Part shown: positions 1 through 7,545 of the stretch, in pieces | Position numbering within the stretch: the first letter of the stretch is position 1 | Layout: every line of letters begins with the position of its first letter | IMG/VR virus record: IMGVR_UViG_2693429524_000008 | Strand: one strand, 5' to 3' | Length of the DNA: 7,545 bases | Origin: a virus | Taxonomy: Duplodnaviria > Heunggongvirae > Uroviricota > Caudoviricetes | Translations under genes and position numbers: made by a program | Notes under the pieces: model-generated | The model's database searches: none | The model's input: the letters and a program-made list of their open reading frames with translations, nothing else | What the model was told of the DNA's origin: nothing

Positions 1-111
1 CATACTCCTCCGGCAGAAGCAGAAAAAGCTTATTATGCTTCCATCGGAAACGATGATCTGGCAGCCTGAGTTCACAGATAAAACACTCTCCAGGAAACCC
101 GGGGCGGTTCA
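1..111 (+). mobile_element. 3' terminal fragment of an IS3-family insertion sequence (IS629/IS1203-like): transposase OrfB C-terminus (1..69) plus about 25 bp right terminal inverted repeat (87..111); element body lies outside the window to the left
   Basis: Seen: 1..111 is the exact reverse complement of 7435..7545. Frame +1 of 1..69 reads HTPPAEAEKAYYASIGNDDLAA-stop, which fits the conserved C-terminal tail of IS3-family DDE transposases. Read from the tip the end is 5'-TGAACCGCCCCGGGTTTCCTGGAGA, the TG...CA terminus typical of IS3-family inverted repeats. The IS629-like assignment is from memory, not a database hit. Confidence 0.6.
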
Positions 112-530
112 GGTTTTGGCGTGTATTCTGGAACAGGTTTCCCTTTTTTTCTGCATGCTTCTGCCCTGAGTCTCCAGTTTTCCTCATGACGCCGGTTCGT
201 CATTTTCTGCATTGCTGAATAAATTTTTGATTCAGTAATGTCTCTTAGTTGCATTCCTGCGAAATGTTGAAGCCAGAATCCGATCCGGCTTTTGTCATCG
301 TCCAGTGATTTTTTATGTGCTTTCTCTTCAAGCCACCTGACACACGCTTCCTCGAACGTTATATCAGGTATTTCACCAAGTTTGCTGACCCGCCATGCTT
401 CAGCCTTTAGCTTGTCATGGAGTTCTGTCGCCTGCCTTTTGTCCTTTGTTCCAAGAGACTGTTTAAATCTTTTACCGTTCGGCAATGTGAAACTGGCGTA
501 CCATATTTCACCTCTGCGGAAGAGTGACAT
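72..530 (-). pseudogene. int: Phage tyrosine integrase, N-terminal fragment only (integrase-derived part 112..530, about 139 codons; the last 13 codons and stop are read from IS sequence)
   Basis: ORF 72..530 (152 aa) begins [31 protein letters not shown]..., recalled as the N-terminus of DLP12/IntD-like lambdoid integrases (arm-binding and start of core-binding domain). The catalytic domain with the R/H-x-x-R/Y active-site residues is completely absent. Integrase-like sequence stops at the IS junction at 111/112. Position next to xis and orientation are lambdoid-typical. Confidence 0.75.
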
Positions 531-757
531 TTTCTTTCCTCTGTTATGCCATCACCCGCGCTCACCTGGACAGTATGCAGCGGAGACTGAAGAGCCGCAA
601 TGCAGGCTTGTCGTGTTGTGAGGTAAGGAGATTTATTCTTAGTGGGATCTTTGCGTGTTGCCTGAAGACGCCCTGTGCGTATCCAGTTAATGGCAGTCGG
701 TCTGGATATCTTGAGAAAATGACAGGCCTCATCGAGAGTGAGGCTGTATGGCTCCAT
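407..757 (-). CDS. xis: Excisionase-like HTH DNA-binding protein (Xis/AlpA family), 116 aa
   Basis: Within ORF 407..841; start chosen at the internal ATG 755..757 ([31 protein letters not shown]...), which has a GAGGTG Shine-Dalgarno about 8 nt upstream and overlaps the stop of the upstream gene as TAATG. The HTH segment resembles excisionase/AlpA-type regulators. Lies immediately upstream of and overlapping int (407..530), as in lambdoid int-xis modules. Confidence 0.55.
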
Positions 758-1062
758 TATTTCACCTCTTGCTGTGACATTGTTGAAAAATGGATACCAG
801 CTCGTTGCTGCCAGACGATCCAACCGAGAGTCATATCCCATGCCATGTATTCGTTATCGCCGTTTTTTGCTCTCCGACGATCTACTAAGTCACCGAAACG
901 CTTTTCCATGAATAATTCATAAGCTTCGCGTTCATCTGGTTCTACTTCCAGAGATAGGAGTGCGATTTCATAAGCACGGCGCTCAATATCGTCTCGCACG
1001 TCAAGGCTGCTGATACGCTCTTTAATTTCTTTAATCAGTTCTTTGTCGGTAAAAGTGGTCAT
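757..1062 (-). CDS. Hypothetical small acidic phage protein, 101 aa
   Basis: ORF MTTFTDKELIKEIKERISSLDVRDDIERRAYEIALLSLEVEPDEREAYELFMEKRF...; its start overlaps the upstream stop as TAATG (1060..1064) and its stop overlaps the xis start as TAATG (755..759), indicating translational coupling in a leftward operon. No recognisable domain. Confidence 0.5.
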   Translation of the reverse strand: MTTFTDKELIKEIKERISSLDVRDDIERRAYEIALLSLEVEPDEREAYELFMEKRFGDLVDRRRAKNGDNEYMAWDMTLGWIVWQQRAGIHFSTMSQQEVK

Positions 1063-1424
1063 TATGCTCCAGCCTCCGGTGCTTTTGGCATTACTGCCCA
1101 GTGAGTGATATTGACGTTTTCAAGGTCCCCAACCTGAAATGTCCACTGCCATTCTCCGGTTTCTTTTTGTCCCCAGGTGTACCAGAGAGAACGCCAACCA
1201 ATTAGCCAGCCTTCTCCGTTAGCATCGAATAACAAAACACTTTCATTTGCTGGTGGCAGTTCAGTTGACACTGGTATTACTTTGTTTTCCTGTGCTGCAC
1301 ATTTAGCTTCAAGCGCATCGAATTTACGCACCAGGTATTCAGCATCTGTTTCATTTACTTTCAGATCTCGCGGTACACATCTCCCACGAAGAAACCCTTC
1401 CATTTCGAAAACATTCATGCGCAT
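1062..1424 (-). CDS. DUF551-domain phage protein, 120 aa (alternative start at ATG 1416..1418, which overlaps the upstream stop as ATGA)
   Basis: C-terminal segment ...ESVLLFDANGEGWLIGWRSLWYTWGQKETGEWQWTFQVGDLENVNITHWAVMPKAPE matches the recalled DUF551 pattern (W-rich, ending in a THW-x-x-P-x-x-P motif) common in lambdoid early-left regions. Confidence 0.6.
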   Translation of the reverse strand: MRMNVFEMEGFLRGRCVPRDLKVNETDAEYLVRKFDALEAKCAAQENKVIPVSTELPPANESVLLFDANGEGWLIGWRSLWYTWGQKETGEWQWTFQVGDLENVNITHWAVMPKAPEAGA

Positions 1425-1951
1425 TTGCGTAACTCCGATAACTCGTTAAAGCGTTCCATAAACATCCCGTAGGCATGGCCCGGTGCCAGTGGAATCACGT
1501 TGAACATCTCTGTTGCCGGGATACCTTCCAGTACAGGCCAGAAAGAGCCATCATCAAGCCCGAGATCGCGGCGTTCGGTTGCCAGCATGATGAGATCGGC
1601 ATATTTCACGGGCGTACTCATAACTGGGGGTAACCCGTATTTCTCACGGATTACGGCGTCTATTTTTTCTTCCATTTGTTTATAGTCAGGAAGAAGGCGT
1701 TTCAGTGGTGCGGGAATGTCCTGGCAATACGCTTCTGTTGCATCATGCATTAACGCTTCAAAAGCAAATTCCTGCGGCACCAACTGGCTGCAAAGAACCG
1801 CATGTTGGGCGACGCTGTAGAAGTGCGAAAGATGACCGGCAAAGCGACAGATATTTGAAAGGGAAACCGCGATATCGTTAATATCGATGTCGTCTTTATT
1901 TATCCTGTCATAATAAAAATGCTTCCCGGAAAAAGTTTTAATAAATGACAT
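1415..1951 (-). CDS. yfdR: HD-domain 5'-deoxynucleotidase, YfdR-like (YfbR family), 178 aa
   Basis: Within ORF 1415..1978; start placed at ATG 1949..1951 (MSFIKTFSGKHFYYD...) because of a GGAGAA Shine-Dalgarno 6 nt upstream. HD-domain metal-binding signature visible (H..H in HLSHFYSVAQH and HD in EALMHDATEAY). Length and N-terminus match my recollection of the CPS-53 prophage protein YfdR. Confidence 0.7.
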   Translation of the reverse strand: MSFIKTFSGKHFYYDRINKDDIDINDIAVSLSNICRFAGHLSHFYSVAQHAVLCSQLVPQEFAFEALMHDATEAYCQDIPAPLKRLLPDYKQMEEKIDAVIREKYGLPPVMSTPVKYADLIMLATERRDLGLDDGSFWPVLEGIPATEMFNVIPLAPGHAYGMFMERFNELSELRKCA

Positions 1952-2044
1952 TTTGTTCTCCACGTATATGCGCTGCACCGCGCTGAATTTTGGTTAAAGA
2001 AAACCCTCGCCATCAGGCGATTATTGAGTTAATTACGTTTCTAT

Positions 2045-2066
2045 AAATGCCCCCGCAGGGGCATTT
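2045..2066. other. GC-rich hairpin (9-bp stem AAATGCCCC / GGGGCATTT, 4-nt loop) in the yfdQ-like to yfdR-like intergenic spacer
   Basis: Perfect inverted repeat seen directly; no U-tract follows on either strand, so it is not a canonical intrinsic terminator. Confidence 0.4.
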
Positions 2067-2078
2067 GCAGTAATGAAA

Positions 2079-2903
2079 TCAGGCGGTGAAAGTACCAATA
2101 AAGGTTTCTACTTTGCTGTCTTTGAATTTTTCAACAAGCAGATTACGAAATTCGTTAGCCATTTCTTCCTGTACTGCTTCCAGCTGAATAATGCGCAGAA
2201 CCAGTACAGGGCGATCACCAGTGATAATGCTGAGGCGTAATTTAAACGGACGTTCTTTCAGGCCTTCAAACGGAACGCATTTAAACTCAAATGCTACTGG
2301 CATAATGTCTTTAGTTTTCGCTTCGACAGACTCCATCAGAGAGCGTTTGCCGCTGAAGTCATTGTCTTCAAAATCAGCGGTCTGGTTTGCTTCAATCGTG
2401 ATTTTACGGACCGCCGCAGCCGCTTTTGTTGCCTGAATGGCGTCACCATTAGCATCAAAGCCCACAAGGTAGTCGGCCCAGTCTTCAATCCATTCTGCCA
2501 GTGACTTCTGGGAGTTACGCTCGCCGTTAACAGACAACAGGGCAGAGAACGGTGCTGTCTTTTTCAGTTTGAGAGTGGCGGTGTTATCTGCGTGACCTGG
2601 TTCATCAATAGTACCCAGGTTAAGCACACTGACGGCTCGCATATTATCAGCATCGATAAAGCAGCGGGTGCTTTCATCTGCAAGATCTTTAGAATAACGG
2701 GTAAAGTCATCGATGCTGGCAGTGGAAAGCGCACCACGGAAACGGAAGCGATTTAAATTAAATTTTTCCAGATCATGAATGCGGAAATTCTCAGGCAATG
2801 CCACAGCATCGGCACCAATCTTACTGATAATTTCATTAACACCCTGAGCAGAAATAAGGGCATGGATTTGATTAATTTCGGTTGCGTCTAAGTTCTGAGA
2901 CAT
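2079..2903 (-). CDS. yfdQ: YfdQ-like DUF2303 family prophage protein, 274 aa
   Basis: Long clean ORF with a GAGGA Shine-Dalgarno 6 nt upstream of ATG 2901..2903. Sequence ([33 protein letters not shown]...) and length agree with my recollection of CPS-53 YfdQ; synteny between the YfdP-like and YfdR-like genes supports this. Confidence 0.65.
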
Positions 2904-2968
2904 AATAAGTCCTCACTATATAAAGATATTCAGTGATGAGATAAATAATCAGTTAATTAAGAACGATA

Positions 2969-3331
2969 TTAATGACCTGCTGCGCGGAGTTTTCCGTCAG
3001 GCTCACCGGCAAGAGTCAGTAATTGTCCCTGGTCTTCCTGCAGAATAGTCAGGCGACCACCGCGATTGACATACATCGGTGTTTCGGTGGTGTCTTCTTC
3101 GGAAATTTTCCCGCGGTTAGTCGGGCGAACATATGAGAGTTTGTGTTTGATTTTCACACGGTTCTCATCAAATGGTTCGATTTCCAGGTTGAGCGAGACC
3201 TTACCTTTGGTTTTCGTGTTCATCACACCGGAAGCGACTTCACTGAGAACTGCGCCGATTTTGGTTTCAAATACGCCGCCGTCCAGCTCCCCGATAAATG
3301 CCTGCACATCAGTACTGCGTTCGCTAGCCAT
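2969..3331 (-). CDS. yfdP: YfdP-like small prophage protein, 120 aa (the longer ORF to 3517 is probably upstream read-through)
   Basis: Start placed at ATG 3329..3331 (MASERSTDVQAFIGELDGG...) because AGGAG lies 7 nt upstream; the 62 codons above it are Cys/Arg/His-rich and not protein-like. Gene order P then Q then R on the minus strand matches the yfdP-yfdQ-yfdR order recalled for E. coli K-12 CPS-53. Confidence 0.5.
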   Translation of the reverse strand: MASERSTDVQAFIGELDGGVFETKIGAVLSEVASGVMNTKTKGKVSLNLEIEPFDENRVKIKHKLSYVRPTNRGKISEEDTTETPMYVNRGGRLTILQEDQGQLLTLAGEPDGKLRAAGH

Positions 3332-3379
3332 TTTGCTGCTCCTCATCATATCGACCCTGCAAGGTCGGTTAGTTTCTCC

Positions 3380-3468
3380 ACAAAACAGAGAAGAACACCT
3401 GCGGTGGCAGCCGCCCGGATGGATTGGGTTATGAGCCCGTCGTCCGGTGATGCTCTTCTCTGTTTTGT
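3380..3468. repeat. Long-range inverted repeat: 15-bp perfect arms (3380..3394 and 3454..3468) separated by 59 nt, in the untranslated leader upstream of the yfdP-like gene
   Basis: 3381..3394 CAAAACAGAGAAGA is the exact reverse complement of 3454..3467, with one further A/T pair at 3380/3468. Confidence 0.5.
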
Positions 3469-3946
3469 AAAAAGAGCGGTACCAGCCGGAAGCAAGTGTA
3501 CAAACTGGTACCGCCAAAGCAGTGGCTGTTGTGGTGACCGGTGCTGATCTCCGGCTTGCGGTTATTTCAGACTCTCACGGGCGTTTAATTGCCCCGCCGA
3601 ACAGCTCTTTTCCGCAATAGCTGCAATGTCTTTCGCGCATCAGTCTGCGCATTCACCACAACGCTGAGAGCACTTAGCCAGTTACGGCACCACACTTTGT
3701 CGCGGTTCCATAAATGCCCTCATCGTTGCACCCTGGTCTCTTCCCAGGCGTCAAACCGAATCGCCACGCTGGTTAGGCGTCTTATCAGCATCATCATTGA
3801 CTTGCACATTCCGGCTACCTGGTTTGTTTGCTCGAGCAAGGAGTGGATTGTCCCCTTTAACGTCACCAGACCGCTAACGACGCATGTGCCATACGCCGTG
3901 TTACAACCAAATTTTGTTTTAATCTTGCCTGTGTTATGTTTCTTTT

Positions 3947-3980
3947 AGATACATTGTGTATCTCATGGATACATTGTCAA
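3947..3980 (-). promoter_or_regulatory. Candidate leftward early promoter (pL-like) with overlapping operator: minus-strand -35 TTGACA (3975..3980), 16-nt spacer, -10 CACAAT (3953..3958); perfect 17-bp palindrome AGATACA-TTG-TGTATCT (3947..3963) plus a second GATACATTG half-site copy (3968..3976)
   Basis: Consensus -35 hexamer and palindrome seen directly; the -10 is weak (lacks the first T). Position immediately downstream of the repressor terminator and upstream of the leftward gene block fits an oL/pL arrangement. Confidence 0.4.
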
Positions 3981-3983
3981 GTA

Positions 3984-4006
3984 TAAAAAAACCTGCCGAA
4001 GCAGGT
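3984..4006 (-). terminator. Rho-independent terminator for the repressor gene (minus-strand RNA: ACCUGC-UUCG-GCAGGU followed by a U-tract)
   Basis: 6-bp perfect stem (3991..3996 / 4001..4006) with a UUCG tetraloop, followed on the minus strand by a run of six to seven T (3984..3990), beginning 13 nt after the repressor stop codon (4020..4022). Confidence 0.7.
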
Positions 4007-4019
4007 TCATAAATATTGA

Positions 4020-4694
4020 TTAGGCCTTTATTGTGTATCTTCTTGGTTTTCCCGAGAAAATCACTGTACCAATTATAGAGCAATTACCGTTAATCTTAAT
4101 GTAAGGCTCAGGCCAGTTTGGGTTTAATGCTTTGAGATAACGCTGTGTTCCATCTTCTATCAATCGCTTGAAGGTGGTTTCGCCTGTATCGTGCATCAAT
4201 GCAATAACGTCGTCACCGTGGCAGGCAGGGACTTCGGGATCAACAAAAATCATGTCTCCAGGGCGGTACTCATCAATCATTGAATCACCAATCACCCGCA
4301 AGATATAAGTCATTTCGCCACAGGGTACAGGGCAGGGATACGTTTCTGCTGTGCTCAAATCAACCTCAGAATAGCCAACTTCTTTCCATGCTCCGGCCTG
4401 TACCCATGATATGACAGGGACTAACGTTATTTGTTTGTTAGTGATTGAAACATCAGGTTTTTTTGTGATGTTCGTTGTCTGGTGTTCTTGATCAAGCCAT
4501 CCGACAGGCAGGTCGAAACATTTTTCGATGTGCCGTGCCATGCTGTCACCGATATTTTTAGTAGCGCCATCCCCCATAAACCTGCTGGTCTGGGTTGGCT
4601 CGCGATCAATCATGGTGGCAAAGGATGAATTTCCGCCAACACCATCTCTCAGTTTTCTGGCGTTAGACCGCCGGATGTCATGGATTGTTTTCAT
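4020..4694 (-). CDS. CI-like prophage repressor: N-terminal HTH domain plus C-terminal S24 (LexA/UmuD-like) autopeptidase domain, 224 aa
   Basis: C-terminal half carries the S24 signature: putative Ala-Gly cleavage site (VQAGAW), Ser nucleophile in VIGDSM and Lys in TFKRL. Divergently oriented to a Cro-like gene across an operator-bearing spacer. Confidence 0.8.
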   Translation of the reverse strand: MKTIHDIRRSNARKLRDGVGGNSSFATMIDREPTQTSRFMGDGATKNIGDSMARHIEKCFDLPVGWLDQEHQTTNITKKPDVSITNKQITLVPVISWVQAGAWKEVGYSEVDLSTAETYPCPVPCGEMTYILRVIGDSMIDEYRPGDMIFVDPEVPACHGDDVIALMHDTGETTFKRLIEDGTQRYLKALNPNWPEPYIKINGNCSIIGTVIFSGKPRRYTIKA

Positions 4695-4710
4695 AACGAA
4701 ATTAAAACCT

Positions 4711-4780
4711 TTGTACCGATAAGGTACAAGTATCTTGAGGGTTCATTTCAATCATGTAATATGTATACCGTAGGTACATA
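4711..4780. promoter_or_regulatory. Immunity-region operator/promoter cluster: perfect 19-bp palindrome TTGTACC-GATAA-GGTACAA (4711..4729), imperfect palindrome TGTATACC-GTA-GGTACATA (4762..4780), and a rightward promoter -35 TTGAGG (4735..4740) / -10 TAATAT (4757..4762)
   Basis: Palindromes and hexamers read directly from the 90-bp spacer between the divergent repressor (start 4694) and cro-like (start 4785) genes; the second palindrome overlaps the -10 and predicted transcription start. Confidence 0.5.
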
Positions 4781-4784
4781 TTGT

Positions 4785-4985
4785 ATGAAAGCGTACTGGG
4801 ACTCTTTAACCAAAGAACAGCAGGGCGAGTTGGCCGGAAAAGTTGGCTCAACACCTGGCTACTTACGGCTGGTTTTCAATGGTTATAAAAAAGCCAGTTT
4901 TGTGCTGGCTAAAAAACTTGAGCAATGCACGTCAGGTGCAATTACGAAATCTGACTTAAGACCGGATATCTATCCGAAAGATTAA
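4785..4985 (+). CDS. Cro-like HTH regulator (YdaS/DUF1019-type), 66 aa
   Basis: Within ORF 4680..4985; start placed at ATG 4785 (MKAYWDSLTKEQQGELAGKVGSTPGYLRLVFNGYKKASFVLAKKLEQCTSGAITKSDLRPDIYPKD) because the upstream part of the ORF overlaps the promoter/operators. An HTH followed by the DLRPDI motif is characteristic of YdaS-type Cro proteins. Confidence 0.6.
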   Translation: MKAYWDSLTKEQQGELAGKVGSTPGYLRLVFNGYKKASFVLAKKLEQCTSGAITKSDLRPDIYPKD

Positions 4986-5016
4986 CAGAACACCTTCAAT
5001 TTTTAACCACAGAACG

Positions 5017-5580
5017 ATGAGGCTAACCGTGGGTAAGCATCACTGGAAAGTAGAAAAACAGCCTGAGTGGTACGTGAAAGCTGTCAGAAAAACTATCGCA
5101 GCGTTGCCGGGTGGTTACGCTGAAGCAGCTGACTGGCTGGATGTAACAGAGAACGCATTATTTAACCGCCTTCGTGCCTATGGCGATCAGATTTTCCCGC
5201 TGGGATGGGCAATGGTTTTACAGCGCGCGGCTGGCACTCACTACATTGCGGATGCTGTCGCACAGTCTGCTGGTGGGGTGTTCGTATCGCTTCCTGAAAT
5301 TGAGGAAGTAGAGAACGCCGATATAAACCAGCGCCTGCTGGAAGTCATTGAACAGATCGGCAGTTATTCAAAACAGATTCGTTCAGCAATTGAAGACGGT
5401 GTAGTGGAACCGAATGAGAAGACAGCAATTAACGACGAGCTGTACCTCTCAATTTCGAAGCTGCAGGAGCATGCAGCACTGGTCTACAAAATTTTTTGCA
5501 TTTCAGAAAGTAATGACGCCCGCGAGTGTGCAGCTCCGGGCGCCGTGGCGTGTCGTGACTGTGGAGAAACTAACGCATGA
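5017..5580 (+). CDS. CII-like phage regulatory protein (CP76-type), 187 aa; possible alternative GTG start at 5029 with a GAGG Shine-Dalgarno
   Basis: Position directly after cro; sequence features (WYVKAV..., [37 protein letters not shown]...) match my recollection of the enterobacterial phage CII/CP76 family. Its stop overlaps the next ATG as ATGA (5577..5580). Confidence 0.55.
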
Positions 5581-5915
5581 ACAGTTTAACAACACACTAC
5601 CGTCGCTCGCAACTGATTGCGCTTCCTGTACCGGGTGGAAAAGCGAAGGTGGAGTATTGCTATGCAGTAAATGTACCAGGTGACAGGGAAATTGTAACCC
5701 ACAGCTTTGCAGAGTGGGCTGTGGGTGATTTCAACCGGCAGAAGGAGACAGTCCTTTGCGACAAGTTAACCGCTGGTTCAAAGATCACTACGGAGTGCCC
5801 GTCAGAGTCATTCGTTGGGAGCCGGAAACACAACGGGTTATCTACCTCCGCGAAGGCTATGAGCATGAGTGCTTCAGCCCGCTCGAACAGTTTCGTCGTA
5901 AATTCAGGGAAGTAG
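5577..5915 (+). CDS. Hypothetical ORF, 112 aa; only the N-terminal half looks protein-like, and coding signal moves to another frame from about 5730 (possible frameshifted gene)
   Basis: ATG overlaps the CII-like stop (ATGA). The C-terminal 50 residues are Ser/Ala-rich and low-complexity, while an overlapping frame is clearly protein-like over 5729..5935. Confidence 0.3.
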
Positions 5916-5935
5916 AGGTCGGTCATGAGCACTAA
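5756..5935 (+). CDS. Small hypothetical protein, 59 codons, TTG start (absent from the ATG-only ORF track); alternatively the C-terminal part of a frameshifted gene that begins at 5577
   Basis: Protein-like translation [59 protein letters not shown]; strong Shine-Dalgarno AAGGAG (5742..5747) 8 nt upstream of TTG 5756; the stop (5933..5935) overlaps the next gene's start. Confidence 0.3.
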
Positions 5936-6263
5936 ATTAACCGGCTATGTATGGGATGGTTGCGCTGCATCAGGCATGAAATTATCCAGCGTGGCAATTA
6001 TGGCCCGCCTGGCTGATTTCAGTAATGACGAAGGTGTGTGCTGGCCATCAATTGAAACCATTGCCCGTCAGATTGGCGCGGGGATGAGTACCGTCAGAAC
6101 GGCTATCGCACGGCTGGAAGCAGAAGGCTGGTTAACGCGTAAGGCGCGTCGCCAGGGTAACCGCAATGCGTCGAATGTTTATCAGCTTAACGTTGCGAAG
6201 CTTCAGGCAGCGGCATTTTCTCAACTGTCAGATTCTGACCCGTCAAAATTTCTTACCTGCTGA
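5925..6263 (+). CDS. Winged-helix (HTH_36-like) replication-initiator-type N-terminal domain protein, 112 aa; possibly the 5' remnant of a longer O-like replication gene
   Basis: AGAGG Shine-Dalgarno 6 nt upstream of ATG 5925. Motif ...DEGVCWPSIETIARQIGAGMSTVRTAIARLEAEGWLTRKARRQGNRNASNVYQLN is typical of the HTH domain at the N-terminus of phage replication-initiation proteins. Followed by about 290 bp without a convincing ORF. Confidence 0.55.
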   Translation: MSTKLTGYVWDGCAASGMKLSSVAIMARLADFSNDEGVCWPSIETIARQIGAGMSTVRTAIARLEAEGWLTRKARRQGNRNASNVYQLNVAKLQAAAFSQLSDSDPSKFLTC

Positions 6264-6555
6264 CAAGTGGGTAACGCCACGCATGATGACGAGAACTACC
6301 GGAGTAAGCGAAGCCAGGTGCCAGTTAATACTGACTCAGTTAGTTCTGGCGGGTCTGGCGAAGGATAACGGCGGGTACGGGAATAAATTCAGACGCTGCC
6401 AGTAATGGCGGTTTCCTGCTGTGAAAATGGGCGGCTGGTGGGTGTTGGTAGCACCTGCCAGCCATTCGCTCATGCTTACTGGTCACAAGCGAACCACGGC
6501 CCACTGCTTTAGCGCAAAAGCAGAGTGAGCCTACCAGAGTTACGCTTACTGATCC

Positions 6556-7437
6556 ATGAAAAATACTGTAAAAATAAACAGTATTGATTTAATCAACGCT
6601 GATTGCCTGCATTTTATTCAGTCCCTGCCTGATGATTCCATTGACCTGATTGTTACCGATCCGCCTTACTTCAAGGTGAAACCTAACGGTTGGGACAATC
6701 AGTGGAAAGGGGACGAAGATTACCTTAAGTGGCTGGACCACTGTCTGGCCCAGTTCTGGCGGGTGTTAAAACCTGCCGGAAGCCTTTACCTGTTCTGTGG
6801 GCATCGCCTGGCATCTGATATTGAGATCATGATGCGTGAACGTTTCAACGTGCTTAACCATATCATCTGGGCGAAGCCGTCCGGACGTTGGAATGGGTGT
6901 AATAAAGAAAGTCTGCGCGCATATTTTCCTGCCACAGAGCGCGTTCTGTTTGCTGAACATTACCAGGGGCCATATCGCGGCAAAAGTGACGGCTATGCAG
7001 CAAAAGAAAGGGAACTCAAACAGCACATAATGGCACCGCTGATATCGTATTTCAGGGATGCTCGTGCCGAACTGGGTATAACGGCAAAACAAATTGCCGA
7101 AGCCACAGGTAAGAAAAATATGGTTTCCCACTGGTTTGGTGCCAGTCAGTGGCAGTTGCCGAATGAGGCTGACTATCGGAAGTTACAGGCACTGTTTTCC
7201 CGTATAGCGGCAGAGAAGTTTCAGGAACAACAACTGGAACAACCACACCACCAGCTGGTGGCATCTTATGATTCACTGAATCGCAAATATTCTGAATTGC
7301 TGGATGAGTTTAAATCTCTCCGGCGCTATTTCTCCGTATCAGTCTCCGTGCCTTATACCGATGTCTGGATGCATAAACCCGTTCAGTTCTACCCGGGTAA
7401 ACATCCGTGTGAGAAACCGGCGGATATGCTCAGGTGA
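6556..7437 (+). pseudogene. N6-adenine DNA methyltransferase (beta-class, phage Dam-like), 3'-truncated at the IS junction (methyltransferase-derived part 6556..7434)
   Basis: Catalytic motif IV, IVTDPPYF, near the N-terminus; the ORF ends ...YPGKHPCEKPADMLR-stop, six residues after the HP-x-x-KP motif that normally precedes the C-terminal AdoMet-binding motif (DPF-x-GSGTT type), which is missing. The TGA stop (7435..7437) is the first three bases of the IS terminal repeat. Confidence 0.75.
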
Positions 7438-7545
7438 ACCGCCCCGGGTTTCCTGGAGAGTGTTTTATCTGTGAACTCAGGCTGCCAGATCATCGTTTCC
7501 GATGGAAGCATAATAAGCTTTTTCTGCTTCTGCCGGAGGAGTATG
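7435..7545 (-). mobile_element. 3' terminal fragment of a second IS3-family (IS629/IS1203-like) copy in inverted orientation: right terminal inverted repeat starting TGAACC at 7435, transposase C-terminus on the minus strand (7477..7545)
   Basis: Exact reverse complement of 1..111; same reasoning as for the left-hand fragment. Confidence 0.6.

Follow-up and report, generated by a model that had tools for sequence, protein, structure and literature searches.

A draft Escherichia coli contig very probably carrying a defective prophage early region between two inverted IS1203/IS629 copies

INTRODUCTION

IS629/IS1203 elements, members of the IS3 family, are found in multiple copies in E. coli O157:H7 as well as in further E. 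coli and in Shigella. Complete IS1203-family copies carry orfA and orfB with a −1 frameshift, an rve DDE domain, TG...CA ends, and 3-bp target duplications. In O157:H7, IS629 insertion in prophage genes at sites varying between strains has been documented (PMC7430833). In the composite transposons Tn5 (IS50) and Tn10 (IS10), two inverted copies of one IS flank a unique segment. A similar geometry arises during assembly: in de Bruijn graphs, a contig bounded by a repeat, such as the plastid small single-copy region between IRa and IRb, has both ends linked to the same side of one collapsed node. Cryptic lambdoid prophages of E. coli with e14/CPS-53-type gene names share the order int, xis-like gene, yfdT, yfdR, yfdQ, yfdP, ymfK, ymfT, and ymfL; we take the ymf and yfd names to go back to e14 and CPS-53 of K-12.

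Here, we analyzed a 7,545-nt viral sequence record (the window) that begins and ends with the same sequence in inverted orientation. We conclude that the window is a contig from a draft E. coli genome and very likely holds the early region of a defective prophage between two inverted IS1203/IS629 copies, with ends set by the assembler.

RESULTS

Both ends of the window match the right end of an IS1203-family element

The initial annotation described a perfect 111-bp inverted repeat, read as two IS3-family right ends in inverted orientation. String comparison and an inverted-repeat search of the window confirmed that positions 1 to 111 and 7435 to 7545 are exact reverse complements (100% over 111 nt). 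The match breaks beyond positions 111 and 7435, where the inner bases are GGTTTT on the left versus CCTGAG on the right (read outward). Such a match greatly exceeds what chance would give (4^-111), and the runner-up inverted pair in the window spans 25 nt at 84%. The terminal features are as follows.

1..111, plus strand: right end of the left-hand IS1203/IS629 copy (identity with L007:802-2111, bases 1200-1310, at 111/111 positions)
1-69, plus strand: last 22 orfB codons and stop (from translation), followed by the noncoding end with the IRR up to 111
7435..7545, minus strand: right end of the right IS1203/IS629 copy, with the IRR terminus TGAACCGCCCCGGG... from 7435 (exact reverse complement; blastn)

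Both arms translate to HTPPAEAEKAYYASIGNDDLAA-stop, and a complete reference copy of the element encodes an IS1203-family transposase that ends in this sequence. The arm terminus is ...GGTTCA, or TGAACC... when read from the end; the IRR thus runs as TGAACCGCCCCGGGTTTCCTGGAGAG... from 7435 and closes as ...GGTTCA at 111, the TG...CA arrangement of the IS3 family. The transposase-like C-terminal tail and TG...CA terminus that had been proposed are therefore upheld by translation and by comparison with the reference copy, and the proposed pair of inverted right ends is supported by the 111/111 match to the IRR end of a 1310-bp IS1203-family element.

That element, the copy at L007:802-2111, shares its last 111 nt (bases 1200-1310) with both arms and is annotated as "IS3-like element IS1203 family transposase"; the name used here comes from the NCBI PGAP annotation of identical copies, and we take the element to be of the IS629 type. 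The window itself holds only the last 22 orfB codons, so the following properties are those of the identical-ended reference copy. Its transposase scored 317.6 bits on NF033516, the IS3-family transposase model (cutoff, 160), with an rve domain present, and the copy is annotated with a programmed −1 frameshift joining orfA and orfB. Its terminal repeats are imperfect (IRL and IRR share the same base at 29 of their first 40 positions). All three complete reference copies are flanked by 3-bp target duplications (GTG, GAC, and CTG). Matches of at least 99% identity to the IS end were found in 4,573 E. coli records, with a median of 3 and a maximum of 50 matching places per carrier genome.

The segment between the IS ends is the early region of a defective lambdoid prophage

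The 7,323 bp between the IS ends are prophage sequence. The early and immunity genes of defective lambdoid ymf/yfd prophages are present here in their usual order, supported by Pfam matches. Positions 112 to 6249 share 99.8% identity over 6,138 nt with prophages that, in complete genomes, are located next to tRNA-Thr and proA. Scanning the window for tRNAs and Rfam families gave no matches. The features between the two interrupted genes are listed below; early-left genes were assigned from ORFs, Pfam, and the RefSeq names of collinear genes, and immunity genes from Pfam (PF00717, PF15943, PF06892, and PF13973) and RefSeq names.

407..3331, minus strand: prophage early-left genes, comprising the next six entries
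407-841, minus strand: xis-like HTH_17 gene, longest ORF
757-1062, minus strand: yfdT
1062-1424, minus strand: DUF551 phage protein
1415-1951, minus strand: yfdR, 5'-deoxynucleotidase
2079-2903, minus strand: yfdQ/DUF2303
2969-3331, minus strand: yfdP
4020..5935, both strands: whole immunity region, comprising the next four entries
4020-4694, minus strand: ymfK, cI-like LexA/S24 repressor
4785-4985, plus strand: ymfT, cro-like
5029-5580, plus strand: ymfL, cII-like
5756-5935, plus strand: DUF4222
5925..6263, plus strand: 5' remnant of an HTH (HTH_36/DnaD_N-like) replication gene, with a deletion joint at ~6248-6250

This joint is an older internal deletion that fuses the replication-gene remnant to the region upstream of a DNA methylase gene: positions 112 to 6249 match L008, which carries an intact int, and positions 6248 to 7434 match L002:14726-15912. 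L009 and the sister contig described below both share this joint.

Each IS end interrupts a prophage gene

Comparison with uninterrupted copies placed the two insertion points within int on the left and the methylase gene on the right.

112..530, minus strand: truncated prophage tyrosine-integrase gene int' (N-terminal 140 codons), running collinearly with intact int in L008 as far as GACGCT/GGTTTT
112..114, no strand: GGT, predicted inner 3-bp target-site duplication of the left IS (from the uninterrupted target in L008 and the duplications at 3/3 reference copies)
6556..7434, plus strand: truncated N6-adenine DNA methyltransferase gene, codons 1-293 of 350 (PF01555; insertion point GCTCAGG/CAAATA from the sister contig)
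7432..7434, no strand: AGG, predicted inner 3-bp target-site duplication of the right IS (from the uninterrupted target in the sister contig and the reference-copy duplications)

On the left, a fused ORF (72-530) reads through int' into 12 IS-encoded residues and a stop. PF00589 covers residues 169 to 340 of the intact integrase, wholly past the break; because the entire catalytic domain is lost, the prophage remnant lacks self-excision by its own integrase. A 222-aa ORF for the int C-terminal part was considered as a marker of the disruption and rejected, as it occurs on 186 contigs, including complete genomes. On the right, the stop codon of the methylase (TGA, 7435-7437) is contributed by the first IS bases. 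The truncated protein keeps DPPY (residue 35) and loses the FMGSG AdoMet motif (residue 310), and its PF01555 match ends at profile position 172 of 221, compared to 220 of 221 in the intact sister gene.

As for the IS3 family in general, each copy would have been acquired through copy-out/paste-in transposition, duplicating 3 bp of target (predicted GGT and AGG). Simple insertion into int would then predict a further contig reading ...GTTGCAACGGACGCTGGT/TGAACCGCCCCGGAAA (int 3' half, then tRNA-Thr and proA), whose outer junction would read ...GACGCTGGT-IRL (int 3' half) with the IS left end TGAACCGCCCCGGAAATCC...; simple insertion into the methylase gene would predict an opposite-strand contig reading ...TTTCCGGGGCGGTTCA/AGGCAAATAATCAATGCC (methylase 3' end, then the holin gene), with the outer junction IRL-AGG-CAAATAATC... 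(methylase 3' end).

A close sister strain shares the left insertion and lacks the right one

The sister contig CYAS01000098.1 (L003) carries the same int::IS junction and differs from the window by 2 mismatches (SNPs) in 7434 nt. Its methylase gene is intact (350 aa) and runs on to holin and lysozyme (lysis) genes, with no right-hand IS. Given the intact methylase gene and only 2 SNPs in 7434 nt, the right IS is a separate presence/absence difference in a resident prophage. The int insertion, common to the sister strain, therefore probably came first, and the methylase insertion was probably a separate event. An independent Logan assembly of run ERR178206 contains a contig 100% identical to positions 2619 to 7434 that ends at the right junction with no IS bases. 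This stop at 7434 hints at a second continuation in the read set, such that the right insertion may be polymorphic in the culture.

We searched for both junctions elsewhere. With 171-nt queries against 5,426 complete E. coli genomes, no place reached at least 80% coverage of either query. GTDB species representatives and JGI metagenomes were scanned for the exact sequence of each junction, and all four scans returned 0 matches. The predicted IRL::AGG::methylase C-terminal fusion (95 aa) was absent from a collection of 5.8 billion proteins and from an exact-match index. This absence is uninformative, since the assembly gene list omits edge-partial genes and the sole in-frame start would give a 40-aa ORF; we rejected it as a sign of deletion on the same grounds.

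Two candidate proteins were also set aside. P0013, a 56-aa methylase fragment starting 2 residues past the insertion site, was rejected as a mark of the outer-junction contig. The contigs encoding it derive from unrelated samples, lack the IS, and begin 1 to 3 nt past the site, and many other fragment lengths of this gene are known. In our judgment, P0013 reflects a selection effect, the gene being one that recurs across prophages. P0137 was rejected as an IS fusion, being a frameshift variant by sequence.

The length of the terminal repeat is set by the assembler

The window is the entire contig CYFD01000103.1 of the E. coli draft GCA_001284405.1 (full-length match). The outer edges of the two arms (positions 1 and 7545) are thus assembly boundaries and not biological ones, while the inner edges are true IS termini. 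At the int::IS junction, the sister assembly has 124 IS bases at its edge versus 111 here, which indicates that the 111-nt length is set by the assembler. No odd k fits 111 and 124 together as a k or k−1 overlap. We therefore take the run-in length to be assembler-dependent and sample-specific.

A multicopy IS would collapse to one node of the assembly graph, and a contig that halts a fixed, k-dependent distance inside the IS at both ends acquires a perfect 111-nt inverted repeat. However, one linear contig that meets the same IS end twice means that the genome holds two IRR ends, even with a collapsed node; for right ends to face inward on both sides, there must be two inverted IS copies, or at the minimum two inverted right ends. 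The initial annotation had cautioned that the identical ends might be contig-edge overlaps into one collapsed repeat and so would not prove that two copies directly flank the segment. The first part of that caution holds, in that the window is a whole draft contig and 111 is assembler-set; the opposition it drew does not, as an edge overlap and two flanking copies are not alternatives. Each flanking copy is visible for 111 nt and is presumably full length (1310 nt).

DISCUSSION

Four other accounts of the window were weighed. The contig might be an assembly artefact, chimeric or mis-terminated, with one or no real IS adjacency. Equal-length repeat run-ins at both ends are indeed assembler-made, and the IS is multicopy in carrier genomes. 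Nevertheless, the independently assembled sister genome shows the same left junction and stays collinear over 7.4 kb, the Logan assembly reproduces the interior and the right-junction break, the interior order agrees with complete genomes, and the repeat stops precisely at a genuine IS terminus on both sides; we regard an artefact as extremely improbable. Less remote, though still quite unlikely, is that either junction is the scar of an IS-adjacent deletion or of IS-IS recombination, or that one flanking IS is partial. Outer-junction contigs were not found, and neither was a protein in which the methylase C-terminus is fused to IS-derived sequence, although that protein search is uninformative. 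Against a scar, the sister contig has no IS in ~3 kb downstream of the site, so that a deletion model needs a distant insertion plus a deletion ending exactly at the IS terminus, where two-step insertion needs one event on the right.

The composite-transposon reading offered in the initial annotation, in which two inverted IS copies and a 7.3-kb segment have moved or could move as a unit, fared worse. Its geometry fits, with two inverted copies of one IS around a unique segment: two IRR ends are present, with 111 nt of each copy in the contig. The segment, however, keeps its native prophage gene order from int to methylase, and its outer ends would both be IRL. Neither junction turned up at a second locus (0 of 5,426 complete E. 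coli genomes; 0 in JGI metagenomes and GTDB representatives). Because the close sister without the right IS continues unbroken into the methylase and lysis genes, the unit arose in situ, one insertion after the other, and we consider movement as a unit extremely improbable. A different question is whether homologous recombination between the IS copies has already inverted the 7.3-kb segment relative to the ancestral order or produced mixed orientations. The segment of 7.3 kb separates two identical inverted repeats, each at least 111 nt and presumably 1310 nt long, and two such 1.3-kb copies could support RecA-dependent flipping of the segment, as an incidental property and not a designed switch. 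Nothing argues directly against inversion, and short reads cannot show it since both orientations yield identical short-read contigs; on the other hand, positive evidence for it is nil. We consider it unlikely, and it is compatible with sequential insertion, not a true alternative to it. A programmed switch of the Hin/Gin/Pin or Fim type does not describe the locus: the segment encodes no serine or tyrosine invertase, its sole recombinase gene is the truncated int without a catalytic domain, and the inverted repeat is IS sequence. It is likewise very improbable that the IS pair turns the immunity and early region (ymfK, ymfT, and ymfL with the yfd genes) into a cassette able to flip back and forth or to transpose, whose orientation or location varies in the population and alters repressor-module expression.

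Under the preferred reading of two sequential insertions, the locus adds two new sites, both in a single E. coli lineage, to those where this highly active IS inserts. The right insertion, as a strain-level presence/absence difference, could serve as a typing marker. Both insertions further cripple an already defective prophage, leaving an integrase without a catalytic domain and a methylase without its AdoMet motif. Like any pair of this kind, the inverted IS copies could on rare occasions recombine and invert the segment between them. The underlying biology is already known, and contig ends of this kind are ordinary. For genome scans, when a contig-sized window carries a perfect repeat, inverted or direct, precisely at its two ends, this marks a multicopy IS that a short-read assembler has collapsed, and the length of such a repeat reports the assembler, not the biology.

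Set against known systems, the flanking elements show no difference in kind from IS629/IS1203, since the visible 111 bases at each end are identical; what is particular here is the pair of sites (int codon 140 and methylase codon 293), which are without counterpart in 5,426 complete E. coli genomes. Compared to cryptic lambdoid ymf/yfd prophages, this copy has an internal deletion (replication gene to Q) and two IS insertions. Unlike Tn5 and Tn10, the bracketed unit gives no sign of having moved, its cargo is a random prophage slice between two disrupted genes, and its outer ends would be IRL. With the repeat-bounded contigs of de Bruijn-graph assemblies, the window shares exact inverted-repeat termini, a k-set repeat length, and an orientation unresolvable by short reads; in contrast to the plastid IRa/IRb pair, a two-copy structural repeat, the repeat here is a mobile element with many genomic copies.

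The contig ends are two copies of one IS right end

The two arms, positions 1 to 111 and 7435 to 7545, were exact reverse complements by both an inverted-pair scan and direct comparison, as the initial annotation had stated. Complementarity breaks off exactly at 111/7435, where the adjoining bases are GGTTTT (left) and CCTGAG (right, outward). A chance origin of this 111-nt match is excluded, since the next-best inverted pair in the window reaches at most 25 nt at 84% identity. The transposase-like tail attributed to the repeat was recovered on translation of either arm (HTPPAEAEKAYYASIGNDDLAA-stop).

Sequence 1-111 occurs in 4,082 of the 5,426 complete E. coli genomes searched (median of 3 places per carrying genome; maximum of 50), and the genome matches fall under features named 'IS3-like element IS1203 family transposase'. 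As a reference, we used one complete copy of 1,310 bp (L007:802-2111), the final 111 bases of which match the window arm exactly. A programmed frameshift is annotated in its CDS; its transposase contains an rve DDE domain and reaches 317.6 bits against NCBIfam NF033516 'IS3 family transposase' (cutoff, 160). The terminal repeats of the reference are imperfect (IRL TGAACCGCCCCGGAAATCC..., IRR TGAACCGCCCCGGGTTTCC...; 29 of the first 40 positions agree), and 3-bp direct duplications (GTG, GAC, and CTG) were present at all three complete copies inspected. Each arm is thus the right (IRR) end of this IS and faces inward, which places the flanking copies in inverted orientation. We take IS1203 to be an isoform of IS629, and the exact match to the reference end agrees with the earlier proposal of an IS629/IS1203-like IS3-family right end, inverted, on both sides.

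An exact-protein look-up, with sequence identity checked, identified the window as contig CYFD01000103.1 in its entirety (7,545 bp), from draft assembly GCA_001284405.1, whose deposited proteins are labeled Escherichia coli. On its outer side, each arm therefore stops at the end of the contig. In a sister draft, GCA_001283645.1, contig CYAS01000098.1 (the sister contig) has the same IS-int junction but carries 124 IS bases at its end, identical to the reference IS. An equal run-in at both ends, with another length in the sister, is the mark of a graph assembler meeting a collapsed multicopy repeat. The caution in the initial annotation that the arms might be k-mer overlaps into one collapsed IS thus accounts for the length of 111, but two flanking copies are still required, though these could be partial. 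The inner arm edges fall on the true IS terminus and so are biological, and a linear contig that runs into the same IS end twice calls for two IRR ends in the genome, however the repeat was handled in assembly.

In the Logan assembly of run ERR178206, contig ERR178206_69 is 100% identical to 2619-7434; its end falls precisely on the right junction, and it includes no IS bases. This backs both the interior sequence and a break in the graph there. Logan assembly uses k = 31. At this k, the lack of IS bases would mean that the reads hold two continuations of the 31-mer that ends at 7434; the fork may reflect a right insertion missing in some cells of the culture or a second identical stretch elsewhere.

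Prophage content between the arms

Positions 112-6249 share 99.8% identity with prophages of complete genomes that are located beside a tRNA-Thr gene and proA. The gene order annotated in these relatives is as follows, and the assignments in the prophage segment are backed by Pfam.

int, integrase
HTH gene (xis-like)
yfdT
phage protein
yfdR
yfdQ
yfdP
ymfK (LexA/S24 cI-like repressor)
ymfT
ymfL
DUF4222
HTH replication protein

At ~6248-6250, the replication gene, of which the 5' 108 codons are retained, is fused to sequence upstream of the late-region DNA methyltransferase, with loss of the rest of that gene, yfdN, rusA, a KilA-N gene, a DUF968 gene, and Q. This joint is common to strain Z1323CEC0019 and the sister contig and is therefore older than both IS insertions.

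Two intergenic regions were also noted. In the ~690-nt gap between yfdP and ymfK (3332-4019), neither the deposited annotation nor the closest RefSeq genomes have a gene call for any ORF, and Rfam gave no match at gathering thresholds. This gap contains an imperfect 25-nt inverted repeat (3380-3404/3444-3468; 84%), a tandem pair of 20-nt units with GATACATTGT (3934-3973), and a terminator-like hairpin, CCTGCCGAAGCAGG, at ~3993-4006. The divergent ymfK/ymfT intergenic region (4695-4784) carries GTACC-N-GGTAC-type palindromes (e.g., TTGTACCGATAAGGTACAAG) that look like operators for the cI-like repressor.

Prophage genes are truncated at both IS junctions

The left target is uninterrupted in a locus with intact int (GACGCT|GGTTTT). 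Of int, 140 codons remain, followed by 12 IS-encoded residues; the entire Phage_integrase catalytic domain, which spans residues 169-340 in the intact protein, falls past the break. The right target is uninterrupted in the sister contig (GCTCAGG|CAAATA). Here the N6-adenine DNA methyltransferase (methylase) keeps 293 of 350 codons, its stop being a TGA at the IS start; DPPY (residue 35) is kept, FMGSG (residue 310) is lost, and the Pfam match stops at profile position 172 of 221, compared to 220 of 221 in the intact gene. Given the missing domains, both products are expected to be inactive.

Partial integrases from Shigella flexneri (P0142 and others in its cluster; 140 aa, on contigs of ~489 nt) end in ...EYTPKP, which corresponds to the last residue of the int-derived part (112-530) of the window ORF; further members stop at 129-132 aa. 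In S. flexneri, a related int allele may carry an interruption at this site or close to it, by descent or through an insertion hot spot. Separately, several database proteins (P0003, P0004, P0006, and P0009) have unrelated N termini (HTH replication protein, RusA-like, and others) fused to the same methylase C-terminal block, starting around ...KHPCEKPADMLRQIINASS. Either repeated deletions with an end point in this stretch of the gene or chimeric assembly among prophage paralogues may explain them.

The IS-bounded segment was built in place

Only 2 of 7,434 positions separate the sister contig from the window, and the int::IS junction is common to both. The sister methylase is intact, and holin, lysozyme, and other lysis genes come immediately after it. 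This makes the right-hand IS a distinct presence/absence difference, with later insertion favored and precise excision in the sister less likely. The right-hand event took place within a prophage already in place, and the IS-segment-IS unit was built in situ and was not delivered whole. Target-site duplications of GGT (left) and AGG (right) are predicted; an IS-adjacent deletion at either side in place of simple insertion is improbable. A protein search for the predicted IRL::methylase C-terminal fusion returned no match, a negative that is uninformative because the gene list omits edge-running genes and the only in-frame start gives a 40-aa ORF.

The suggestion of a composite-transposon-like unit did not hold, as the sister keeps the cargo in place without the right IS. 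The left and right junctions were found in none of the 5,426 complete E. coli genomes, and both were absent from GTDB species representatives and JGI metagenomes. No dedicated invertase gene was present among the window ORFs and Pfam matches. We therefore rejected both a moved composite transposon, given assembly in place and junctions found nowhere else, and a programmed inversion switch, given the lack of an invertase. As a generic possibility, RecA recombination between inverted 1.3-kb repeats 7.3 kb apart could flip the segment; both orientations yield identical short-read contigs.

Relation to known IS629 biology

Overall, the reading in the initial annotation, caveat included, was judged correct, and the observation is real. 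In E. coli O157:H7, IS629/IS1203 outnumbers every other IS. Its sites differ between strains, and insertions into prophage genes, stx2 among them, are known (PMC7430833). In a draft assembly, a prophage fragment with an IS629/IS1203 copy on each side is routine; what was found here combines already-known biology with the effect of an assembly boundary.
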